A DNA stretch of 35,453 bases from the IMG/VR virus record IMGVR_UViG_2908567220_000004; one strand, 5' to 3'. Shown piece by piece: positions 8,701-11,700 of the stretch. Numbering within the stretch: position 1 is the stretch's first letter; each line of letters starts with the position of its first letter. The DNA comes from a virus. Lineage: Duplodnaviria; Heunggongvirae; Uroviricota; Caudoviricetes. Position numbers: made by a program.

Positions 8701-11700
8701 TTCGAGCGGGCTGAAGCACTCATGCTCATAGCCTTCGCGGAGGTAGATAACCCGTTGTGTTTCCGGCTCCCAACGAATGACTCTGACGGGCACTCCGTAG
8801 TGATCTTTGAACCAGCGGTTAACTTGTCGCAAAGGACTGTCTCCTTCTGCCGGTTGAAATCCCCCACAGCCCACTCAGCAAAGCTGTGGGTTACAATTTC
8901 CCTGTCACCTGGTACATTTACTGCATAGCAATACTCCACCTTCGCTTTTCCACCCGGTACAGGAAGCGCAATCAGTTGCGAGCGACGGTAGTGTGTTGTT
9001 AAACTGTTCATGCGTTAGTTTCTCCACAACCAGAAGCAATCGACGCCACGACGCCCGGAGCTGCACACTCGCGGGCGTCATTACTTTCTGAAACGCAAAA
9101 AATTTTGTAGACAAGTGCTGCATGCTCCTGCAGCTTCGAAATTGAGAGGTACAGCTCGTCGTTAATTGCTGTCTTCTCATGCGGTTCCACTACACCGTCT
9201 TCGATTGCCGAACGAATCTGTTTTGAATAACTGCCGATCTGTTCAATGACTTCCAGTAAACGCTGGTTAATATCGGCATTGTCCACATCCTCGACGTCAG
9301 GAAGAGACACAAAGACGCCATTTGCAGACTGCGCCACAGCGTCAGCAATGAAGTGAGTGCCACCAGCACGTTGTAAAATCATTGCCCATCCCAGCGGGAA
9401 AATCTGATCGCCATCGGCACGAAGGCGGTTAAATAATGCATTCTCTGTTACATCCAGCCACTCAGCAGCTTCAGCGTAACCCCCCGGCAACGCCGCGATA
9501 GTTTTTCTGACAGCTTTCACGTACCACTCAGGCTGTTTTTCCACTTTCCAGTGATGATTACCCACGGCTTACCTCCTGTTCCTGTGGTTTAAACCCATTC
9601 TGGTTTTGGCTAGATTGAAAACGTGCCGGATAAAGAATCTGCATTTCGCTGATTTCACCCTTAAAAAAATTGGCCAGACGTTCTGCAAGATCGATAGATG
9701 GAATTTGTTCCAGTCTTTCAATACGACTCAGCGTCGCTGGATTGACCTGAACGCCAGCAGCAACATGCTGCAAAGTAAATCCGTGCGCCTTACGCACATT
9801 CCGTAATGGTGATTGCATATGACCTCCACATATTGCGTGATGAGCATATTATTTCACGCAAATATTTTGCGCAGGTTGATTTGCTTAACGCGCAATAAAG
9901 AAATGTAATAAACGCATGAACATAGGAAACCGAGTCAGACAACTTCGCCAGGCGAAGAACATGAAAATCGCCGATCTCGCTGAAGCAATAGGAGTGGATG
10001 CGGCGAATATCTCACGCCTGGAAACAGGTAAGCAGAAACAATTCACTGAACAAGCCCTGAGTAATATTGCCAGGAGCTTAGGTGTTGATATTGCTGATCT
10101 CTTTACCTCAGACTTCAAAAGTAATACTGTATGTAAAAACAGTATTAGTGAGGATGTTGCGCAGGTGAAGGATGTATTCCGTATTGAAATGCTGGATGTC
10201 AGTGCCAGTGCGGGAAATGGCCTTATCCAGGGCGGTGATGTCATTGATGTGATTCATGCCATTGAATACAGAACTGATAATGCTGTATCGATGTTTGGCG
10301 GACGGCCAGCCAATCACATTAAAGTTATCAACGTTCGTGGGGACAGTATGTGTCCAACCATTGAGCCAGGAGATCTCATCTTCGTTGATGTCAGTATCAA
10401 TCAGTTTGATGGAGATGGTATCTATGTATTTGGTTTTGATGATAAAATTTATGTCAAACGACTGCAAATGATACCTGACAAACTACTGGTGATTTCTGAT
10501 AACCAGCTTTACCGTGAATGGGGAATTACCAGCGAAAATGAACACCGGTTTATGGTCTTTGGAAAGGTCTTAATCAGCCAGTCACAAACCCTTAAGCGAC
10601 ACAATTAACCCTTACCTCCTCATCAATTAGCCACCCAAAGGTGGCTTTTCATTACCCTTTAAATTGCATATCTCGCAACAAAAACACTTGCATAATGCGC
10701 AACTTCATTTTATCTTTCTTTCCAGACAAACAAACAAGGTACTAACAAAATTTGGTTGTAACACGGCGTATGGCACATGCGTCGTTAGCGGTCTGGGGAC
10801 GTTAAAGGGGACAATCCACTCCTTGCTCGGGCAAACAAACCAGGTAGCCGGAATGTGCAAGTCAATGATGATGCTGATAAGACGCCTAACCAGCGTGGCG
10901 ATTCGGTTTGACGCCTGGGAAGAGACCAGGGTGCAACGATGAGGGCATTTATGGAGCCGCGACAAAGTGTGGTGCCGTAACTGGCTAAGTGCTCTCAGCG
11001 TTGTGGTAATCCGCGAAATGGCGCGGCGGTAAGTATGGCGGGGTTACTCTTTCCCCGTTGAGGACACCGGATTGTCAGGTTGACCATACGCCTGAGTGAC
11101 AACCCCACCACAACAGCCACTGCTTTGGCGGTACCAGTTTGTACCCTTGCTTCCGGCTGGTACCGCTCTTTTTACAAAACAGAGAAGAGCATCACCGGAC
11201 GACGGGCTCATAACCCAATCCATCCGGGCGGCTGCCACCGCAGGTGTTCTTCTCTGTTTTGTGGAGAAACTAACCGACCTTACAGGGTCGATATGATGAG
11301 GAGCAGCAAAATGGCTAGCGAACGCAGTACTGATGTGCAGGCATTTATCGGGGAGCTGGACGGCGGCGTATTTGAAACCAAAATCGGCGCAGTTCTCAGT
11401 GAAGTCGCTTCCGGTGTGATGAACACGAAAACCAAAGGTAAGGTCTCACTCAACCTGGAAATCGAACCATTTGATGAGAACCGTGTGAAAATCAAACACA
11501 AACTCTCATATGTTCGCCCGACTAACCGCGGGAAAATTTCCGAAGAAGACACCACCGAAACGCCGATGTATGTCAATCGCGGTGGTCGCCTGACTATTCT
11601 GCAGGAAGACCAGGGACAATTACTGACTCTTGCCGGTGAACCTGACGGAAAACTCCGCGCAGCAGGTCATTAATATCGTTCTTAATTAACTGATTATTTA

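Follow-up and report, generated by a model that had tools for sequence, protein, structure and literature searches.

The window analysed here is a 35,453-nucleotide (nt) stretch of viral DNA (Duplodnaviria; Heunggongvirae; Uroviricota; Caudoviricetes), held as IMG/VR record IMGVR_UViG_2908567220_000004. Our subject is a terminator hairpin at positions 11127-11173, which a first-pass annotation had described as a candidate small RNA (sRNA) resembling DicF. Among prophage sRNAs, DicF belongs to the small number whose effects are known: it influences host division, metabolism, and the virulence of enterohaemorrhagic Escherichia coli (EHEC). The region around the hairpin is the immunity region of a defective lambdoid prophage. 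Judged by sequence and position, the hairpin is a divergent allele at the dicF locus. It is a positional homolog of dicF and not DicF itself. The features of the locus are these:

9008-9565, minus strand: CII (CP76) gene (Pfam)
9558-9818, minus strand: Cro-like gene (Pfam)
9916-10608, plus strand: cI-type repressor, with helix-turn-helix (HTH) and S24 autopeptidase domains (Pfam Peptidase_S24, 5.7e-19, and HTH_3/HTH_26; XRE family regulator according to PGAP)
10629-10650, plus strand: intrinsic terminator of the repressor transcript (terminator-like site AGCCACCCAAAGGTGGCT, then TTTT)
10664-10724, plus strand: putative pL promoter (operators 10664-10678 and 10688-10702; -35 element TTGCAT, 10688-10693; -10 element TATCTT, 10711-10716)
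10934-10950 with 10988-11003, plus strand: P0, a long duplex around a variable insert (from the leader fold and an alignment of upstream regions)
10995-11121, plus strand: module A, a conserved four-helix junction (helix P1 is 11000-11007 / 11107-11114, with P2, P3, and P4 inside)
11115-11126, plus strand: short spacer from P1 to the hairpin (AGCCACUGCUUU); the step between GC and UUU is a putative RNase E-type site
11127-11173, plus strand: DicF-type terminator hairpin, with a pyrimidine-rich loop of 15-19 nt, then UCUUUUU
11170-11266, plus strand: module C, a long hairpin (24 bp basal duplex, 11170-11193 / 11243-11266, and inner branches)
11311-11673, plus strand: yfdP, first gene of the leftward operon (PGAP annotation of identical DNA; Pfam YfdP)
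3' of yfdP, plus strand: yfdQ/DUF2303, yfdR, and yfdS; Pfam matches here include a YfbR-like nucleotidase and DUF551
14112-15275, plus strand: integrase (Pfam)

The immunity region and the pL leader

The hairpin lies downstream of the repressor gene, identified by its HTH and S24 domains, as the first-pass annotation had placed it. Note that the repressor has its own terminator, and that a separate promoter, bearing operators, intervenes between the repressor gene and the hairpin. In phage SfII, the site homologous to the repressor terminator is annotated as a putative rho-independent terminator. The sequence TTGC-N7-GCAA occurs exactly three times in the whole window (9881-9895, 10664-10678, and 10688-10702), and the copy at 9881 falls in the cro/cI intergenic region. 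The three copies probably mark repressor operators at pR/pRM and at pL. Reading the promoter hexamers from the sequence, TATCTT sits 17 nt 3' of TTGCAT, and the latter overlaps the second pL operator. From the operator pair and these hexamers we infer a repressor-controlled pL, starting at about 10724. A promoter scan, which applies a stricter rule, made no call at 10664-10724.

Between the pL start and yfdP is a leader of about 590 nt, free of open reading frames (ORFs). The hairpin sits in this leader, about 400 nt 3' of pL and ahead of yfdP. From yfdP onward, the gene order is matched in K-12 CPS-53. Two coding readings of the leader, a 92-amino-acid ORF at 10664-10942 and a 41-amino-acid minus-strand ORF at 10995-11120, were rejected on their patterns of substitution, insertion, and deletion. 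Substitutions in helices are compensatory, G·U pairs fit the plus strand only, and insertions and deletions in loops are not multiples of three. An upstream extension of yfdP (TTG at 11080; 11080-11673, plus strand), running through the hairpin and module C, was rejected on the same patterns and is an open-frame artefact: K-12 yfdP and the PGAP annotation start with the ATG at 11311. The 5' part of the leader (10744-10930, plus strand) is conserved too: cdtI, Stx2c, and mEp460-like phages have it in near-identical form, and a Citrobacter locus matches it at about 85-90% identity. This part holds no convincing ORF.

The hairpin and its relation to DicF

The hairpin stem (11128-11137 / 11157-11166; GCGGTACCAG / CTGGTACCGC) has 10 Watson-Crick pairs, to which two G·U pairs are added. 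Its loop measures 15-19 nt, and the tail, TCTTTTT, has its last base at 11173. The minimum free energy is -22.5 kcal/mol (z = -2.87) and none of 200 shuffled sequences folded equally well. The stem and tail are as the first-pass annotation had described them. A simple terminator scan missed the structure because it admits only loops of 3-8 nt. A loop of 15-19 nt is atypical for a plain terminator. The DicF-like string CTTTGGCGGTACCAGTTTGTACCC occupies 11123-11146. Within it, 11124-11140 matches the DicF 17-mer TTTGGCGGTATCAGTTT with one mismatch, and no such match was found in 100 dinucleotide shuffles of the window. The resemblance to the DicF core is thus real. The start then proposed for the element, 11105, takes in the 3' strand of helix P1, which belongs to another structural module.

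An alignment to the Rfam covariance model for DicF had been proposed as a check on identity. The candidate failed it. The model (RF00039) has a gathering cutoff of 48 bits. It gave no match at gathering, and none at E<=10 on 900 nt (10500-11400). On 91 nt (11095-11185) it scored 11.9 bits (E = 1.8), aligning only model positions 12-52. This is the hairpin half, and both arms were aligned. With the same tool, K-12 dicF scored 76.7 bits. DicF was the Rfam model aligning most sensibly to the 11127-11173 hairpin. Searches with Rfam at three stringencies assigned neither the hairpin nor modules A and C to any family, and weak microRNA and hairpin-ribozyme matches were spurious.

We compared the hairpin with DicF of the K-12 prophage Qin. 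Each lies next to the immunity genes, in the early leftward operon of a lambdoid prophage, with module A, the precursor domain, on its 5' side and a long hairpin of the RNase III type on its 3' side. Both are intrinsic terminators based on GGCGG/CCGCC with a run of U residues, and the shared scaffold can be written UUUGGCGGUAyCAGUUU...CCGCyC-U5. The differences are as follows. First, in a global alignment with Qin, where the DicF part is 59% identical, 18-19 nt are absent from the window. The deletion includes the AU-rich RNase E site and the DicF 5' end, of which 11-12 nt are lost. Hence the single-stranded segment UUUCUGGUGAC, which carries the end generated by RNase E and pairs with xylR and pykA, is not present, and model positions 1-11 (DicF nt 1-11) are unmatched. 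Second, the stem is a perfect 10 bp in the window but bulged in DicF. Third, the window loop has another sequence, so it does not pair with ftsZ as DicF does. Finally, the downstream gene is yfdP in the window and dicB in Qin.

The loss of ftsZ pairing bears on whether this could be a genuine DicF, able to block translation of ftsZ and to induce filamentation. The DicF segment ACUCCG, which pairs with the ftsZ Shine-Dalgarno sequence, is replaced here by GUACCCUUGCUUCC. We calculated simple duplex energies on the loops, a measure that is not accessibility-aware. By this loop-only measure, CAGUUUUACUCCG of DicF pairs with CGGAGAGAAACUA, over the Shine-Dalgarno sequence, at -16.5 kcal/mol (p~0.05). 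The best duplex for the candidate loop, by the same measure, avoids the Shine-Dalgarno sequence, lies upstream of it, and is no better than those of shuffles (p = 0.12). The locus and scaffold are the same as those of DicF, and pairing could still form between CAGUUU, which both RNAs have, and the AAACU beside the start codon of ftsZ. Set against this are the model score, far below the cutoff, the replaced loop, and the missing 5' seed. We therefore regard a functional DicF as very unlikely. The first-pass annotation had proposed both a DicF paralog in an immunity region and an ftsZ inhibitor. Locus homology and scaffold uphold the former; the latter is not supported, given the replaced loop and its pairing result. 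With a different loop, and without the DicF 5' end, the hairpin is thus a common and unannotated relative of DicF, probably with other targets.

Modules flanking the hairpin

Module A lies directly 5' of the hairpin. A stretch of about 120 nt here (10997-11115) shares about 85% identity with the DNA that directly precedes dicF in Qin (117 of 138 alignment columns). Helix P1 is formed by GUUGUGGU and ACCACAAC. The loops UUGACCAUACG and AAAUGG are nearly invariant, and GGCGCGGCGGUAAG and CAGGUUGACCAU are invariant. Homologs were collected from IMG/VR phage contigs and from one genome per species (Escherichia, Shigella, Citrobacter, Trabulsiella, Erwinia, and Izhakiella), and they covary in helices P1-P4. 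At the tip of P3, one position is found as G-C, U-A, A-U, and C-G among phages. P4 occurs as UGUCA/UGACA, as UGCCA/UGGCA in phage P1, and as UAACCA/UGGUUA in Izhakiella. Across 32 distinct sequences, aligned by fitting to the model, which favours that structure, and with the window sequence in the seed, 93.8% of the cells are paired, compared to 33-58% when the partners are slid. In the same alignment, 15 pairs are changed on both sides; shuffles give 4.9±1.3, and none of 500 reaches 15. The covariance model, R1, has a single match in the window (10995-11121, 141 bits). In Qin it matches at 3247-3373 of locus L001 (144 bits), directly abutting dicF and about 800 nt into the operon. R1 had no match in HK022 or CPS-53, and no second copy on the pR side of the window. 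Module A was not called as a tRNA by Rfam, nor by ARAGORN in related loci. It is a candidate for a new RNA family, common to lambdoid phages and phage P1.

Just 5' of module A is P0, a duplex of about 17 bp that sequesters the first bases of helix P1. Its strands, in the window and relatives, are ACAACGAUGAGrGCAUU and AGUGCUCUCnnCGUUGU. Compensatory differences are seen in Trabulsiella, and between the Qin type and the window type. In the minimum-energy fold of Qin, the equivalent duplex is CCAUAACGCGAAAGCGCAUGG paired with CCGUGCGCUUCCGGUUGUGG.

Two DicF species are made from Qin: one of 53 nt, with a 5' end that needs RNase E, and one of 190 nt, with a 5' end that needs RNase III (Ragunathan et al. 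2023, confirming Faubladier 1990; PMC10448788). The 53 nt species has its 5' end from RNase E and its 3' end from the terminator (PMC5069750). The difference, 137 nt, puts the 5' end of the 190 nt species at about position 3246 of L001. This is the start of the module A match, inside the 3' strand of Qin P0. By length and position, module A would therefore be the 5' domain of the known 190 nt species. Similarly, lengths and folds make P0 the likely RNase III site. In the window, the same module A is fused directly to the hairpin, with the P0 duplex at the equivalent place. The equivalent species from the window would be shorter, at about 180 nt. With the four-way junction, the 190 nt DicF precursor, known for a long time, acquires a structural identity. 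To our knowledge, this fold of its 5' domain has not been described so far.

Phages P1 and P7 have a 'dicF-like region', so labelled in GenBank (NC_005856), directly 3' of the C1-controlled Pban promoter. Like the window, this region has module A (R1 score of 92 bits, with compensatory changes) followed by an intrinsic terminator. The terminator of this region, however, a small GC hairpin whose loop resembles a tetraloop, has no sequence relationship to the hairpin in the window. Genes for tRNAs then follow.

The 3' strand of helix P1 includes CACAACA (11108-11114), just 5' of the hairpin. This is the consensus of GcvB R1 targets (PMC4104026), so the element might be an anti-sRNA that sponges GcvB, as AgvB does. 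We consider this scarcely credible, because CACAACA is a paired strand of P1. It is conserved for pairing, and Qin has GCUGCAAC in its place. In the species of about 180 nt the motif would be paired, and the short species would probably have lost it. Furthermore, AgvB lies at another phage locus, the PR' moron site (PMC4104026). AgvB and AsxR, anti-sRNAs of Shiga toxin (Stx) and lambdoid prophages, do resemble the hairpin: they too are short prophage sRNAs forming a family in which the terminator part is conserved and variable seeds are swapped (PMC4104026). They differ in having their own promoters, and in that their variable part is the 5' end and not the loop. The Rfam models for AgvB and AsxR gave no match at the hairpin locus. 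The Pas sRNAs of enteropathogenic E. coli were also rejected, being at other loci: PasB is in a structural operon, and PasA, PasC, and PasD are near Q, lysis, and esterase genes.

The slot clamped by helix P1 is mosaic. In loci L164/L165, L178, L172, and L229, module A is replaced by unrelated inserts of 121, 45, about 150, and 113 nt, equivalent to 11008-11106 of the window. P0, P1, the hairpin, and module C are unchanged. The 121 nt insert is the 'mEp460-type'. In locus L226 (8173-8299; the slot corresponds to window positions 11000-11114), P1 (GUUGUGG...CCACAAC) holds a tRNA-like element that scores 42.1 bits with the Rfam tRNA model. Its D and T arms are canonical, its anticodon region measures 69 nt, and P1 itself is the acceptor stem; ARAGORN makes no call. 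This suggests that P1 is an acceptor-stem equivalent.

These observations bear on a cis-regulatory reading of the leader. Here, the hairpin would be an expression platform and module A a sensor, or an element binding RNA polymerase or another factor, with a put-like position or a tRNA-like shape. Module A would set the balance between termination and read-through into yfdP, with any sRNA as a by-product. Module A, with its invariant loops and covarying stems, is strongly conserved. It is always found just 5' of an intrinsic terminator and just 3' of repressor-controlled early promoters, in lambdoid prophages and at Pban of phage P1. In addition, no N-like gene separates pL from yfdP, and competition between P0 and P1 for the GUUG bases is a potential switch. 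However, inspection found no antiterminator pairing with the hairpin arms. The same hairpin is also found where the P1 slot has an unrelated insert, or none at all, so module A is not needed. In Qin, about 800 nt of the operon precede module A. Taken with the comparisons below, we judge this reading unlikely.

Two known leaders are comparable. Like the lambda N leader, with nutL and an RNase III hairpin, and like HK022 putL, the window has a long, structured, untranslated leader that directly follows pL, precedes the first leftward gene, and contains duplexes sensitive to RNase III. Unlike the lambda leader, it has no boxB-type hairpin and no N gene. The HK022 put sites are two stem-loops of about 70 nt, in left and right copies, whereas the window has one copy of a four-way junction. 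A comparison of the HK022 immunity region (the pL-nun interval) with the window leader gave only chance matches of 8-13 nt. With no similarity to putL, and a single copy, identity as a put-like antiterminator is not supported, though a function of this kind is conceivable.

Module C follows the hairpin. The first-pass annotation had noted a second hairpin here. This is real, and much stronger than described (-49.7 kcal/mol, z = -7.7), although the arm coordinates then given were off by 1-2 nt. Loci of Escherichia, Citrobacter, Erwinia, and Izhakiella retain module C, and in 4 of its pairs both partners have changed. Qin has an analogous long hairpin after dicF, with a sub-threshold match to STnc100. 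In Qin, RNase III acts 3' of DicF, making an alternative DicF 3' end (PMC5069750). By analogy, module C is a likely RNase III substrate in read-through transcripts.

Alleles of the hairpin and possible functions

Among phage loci, at least 9 different types of spacer plus terminator follow module A. The DicF type accounts for 78 of about 120 sampled loci and the window type for 19; the P1 type and several others make up the remainder. Only the DicF type and one close variant (L025-type, 58.9 bits) are detected by the Rfam DicF model; the window, L031, L146, L083, L020, L005, and L045 types are not. The window stem, with any loop, occurs in 122 phage loci, where it carries at least 27 different loops. 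Their length is nearly fixed, at 15-19 nt, and they are 66% pyrimidine, compared to 46% for the leader. About half have a central YCCYNN motif, such as CCCUUG or UCCCAU. Rfam gave no match at the hairpin in any of nine loci with a window-type stem. We define the 'GGCGGUACCAG' hairpin family by the stem GGCGGUACCAG / CUGGUACCGC(C), a pyrimidine-rich loop of 15-19 nt, a U-tail, and module C thereafter. The window hairpin has all of these.

Extended versions of the hairpin, of about 75 nt, were seen in loci L045, L152, L158, and L161 (Trabulsiella, Erwinia, Izhakiella, and one phage contig). Their apical part, CAGGAGG...AUG, resembles a Shine-Dalgarno sequence and start codon. This could be a tiny ORF or a purine-rich loop.

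The main rival to an sRNA is a pure terminator, or attenuator, of the pL leader. This would be a tL-type stop against a leaky leftward operon, with no role in trans, and the likeness to DicF would reflect a shared ancestral terminator. A drifting loop would account for the conserved stem and U-tail, with loop sequence freely variable among relatives, and the position between a promoter and its first gene is apt. In phage P1, module A is followed at this place by a plain terminator with a small loop. Targets were not evidenced by the ftsZ duplex calculation, or by a search of the window for cis sites. What such an attenuator leaves unexplained is the fixed, large loop, its composition, and the flanking RNase III duplexes. 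Efficient terminators normally have loops of 3-8 nt; here the loop is held at 15-19 nt, is pyrimidine-rich, and often has a central CCCUU or CCCAU. RNase III-type duplexes on both flanks suggest that a discrete RNA is excised. Furthermore, in Qin the homologous element, which uses the equivalent loop, has been proven to be an Hfq-dependent sRNA (PMC5069750). We therefore find a terminator with no further role possible, but doubtful.

We favour, by a modest measure of confidence, an attenuator or terminator that also yields an sRNA of the DicF superfamily, with targets other than ftsZ. The observed locus homology, structures, covariation of the flanking modules, and allelic pattern are its starting point. 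Termination, processing, Hfq binding, and targeting are extrapolated from DicF. Briefly, inactivation of the S24 repressor would let pL fire at about 10724. The untranslated leader, of roughly 590 nt, would fold into P0, module A, the hairpin, and module C. The hairpin and U-tail, by structure and by likeness to DicF, would act as an intrinsic terminator that stops a fraction of transcripts, giving an RNA 3' end at about 11173. This would attenuate entry into yfdP-yfdQ-...-int. By analogy to Qin, RNase III may cut in P0 to release an RNA of about 180 nt, comprising module A and the hairpin. Cleavage of an RNase E type, within the spacer of 12 nt, could yield a hairpin RNA of about 50 nt. The latter would act in trans, through Hfq. 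Its pyrimidine-rich loop, containing CCCUU, would be the seed for purine-rich, Shine-Dalgarno-like sites in mRNAs other than ftsZ. This action in trans, argued from DicF, is the least certain step.

Several points weigh against an sRNA. A conserved stem and variable loop are also expected of a pure terminator with a drifting loop. The U-tail, UCUUUUU, is short and interrupted. Since the spacer to module A is only about 12 nt, the short RNA species would have almost no 5' single strand. The pL start and both RNase cleavage sites are predicted positions. The window contains no cis site complementary to the loop. Finally, the hairpin sequence was not found in the searched text of papers, and is absent from the supplements of EHEC Hfq-CRAC (cross-linking and analysis of cDNA) work.

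A broader proposal, which we put forward tentatively and hold to be rather less probable than an sRNA-yielding terminator, concerns the whole leader. The pL leaders of many enterobacterial temperate phages, and of phage P1 at Pban, might encode a modular RNA cassette. Its parts would be P0, an exchangeable domain clamped by helix P1, an exchangeable seed terminator hairpin, and a second RNase III hairpin. DicF would then be one allele of a large family of seed-swapped sRNAs, unseen by Rfam, and module A a new class of structured RNA with its own function. Module A is the most frequent domain in the P1 slot, and one locus holds the tRNA-like element instead. If true, module A could be, for example, a tRNA-mimicking domain for processing or stabilisation, or a cis-acting element for elongation or antitermination.

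The sequence of the hairpin is widespread. An 81 nt segment containing it was found in 1994 of 5426 complete E. coli genomes (about 37%), and at least 80% of the segment was covered in 1389. Among the matches listed, no annotated feature lay under full-length matches of the segment. Parts of a 721 nt leader sequence occur in 4770 genomes. In phage records, the leader is unannotated or is given short hypothetical ORFs. The DicF locus is polymorphic, and roughly one in three complete E. coli genomes, those of ST131-type strains among them, has a non-DicF allele that is unannotated. A common class of prophage regulators, probably induced with the prophage, is therefore overlooked by current sRNA annotation.

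Other RNAs were found elsewhere in the window. Two neighbouring RNAs on the minus strand, at 29945-30032 and 30095-30172, are a C4 antisense RNA (81 bits) and isrK (69 bits). They are in an apparent P4-like island, with a 919-amino-acid primase-like ORF (24767-27526) and an integrase-like ORF (32630-33844). The island adjoins tRNA-Thr(CGU), at 34013-34085, and proA. The same C4/isrK pair occurs near module A in loci L035 and L083. Finally, a full-length match to the cspA thermoregulator (156 bits; 1206-1645, minus strand) lies at the truncated end of the prophage, between IS1-like (1-700) and IS5-like (1761-2741) ORFs.

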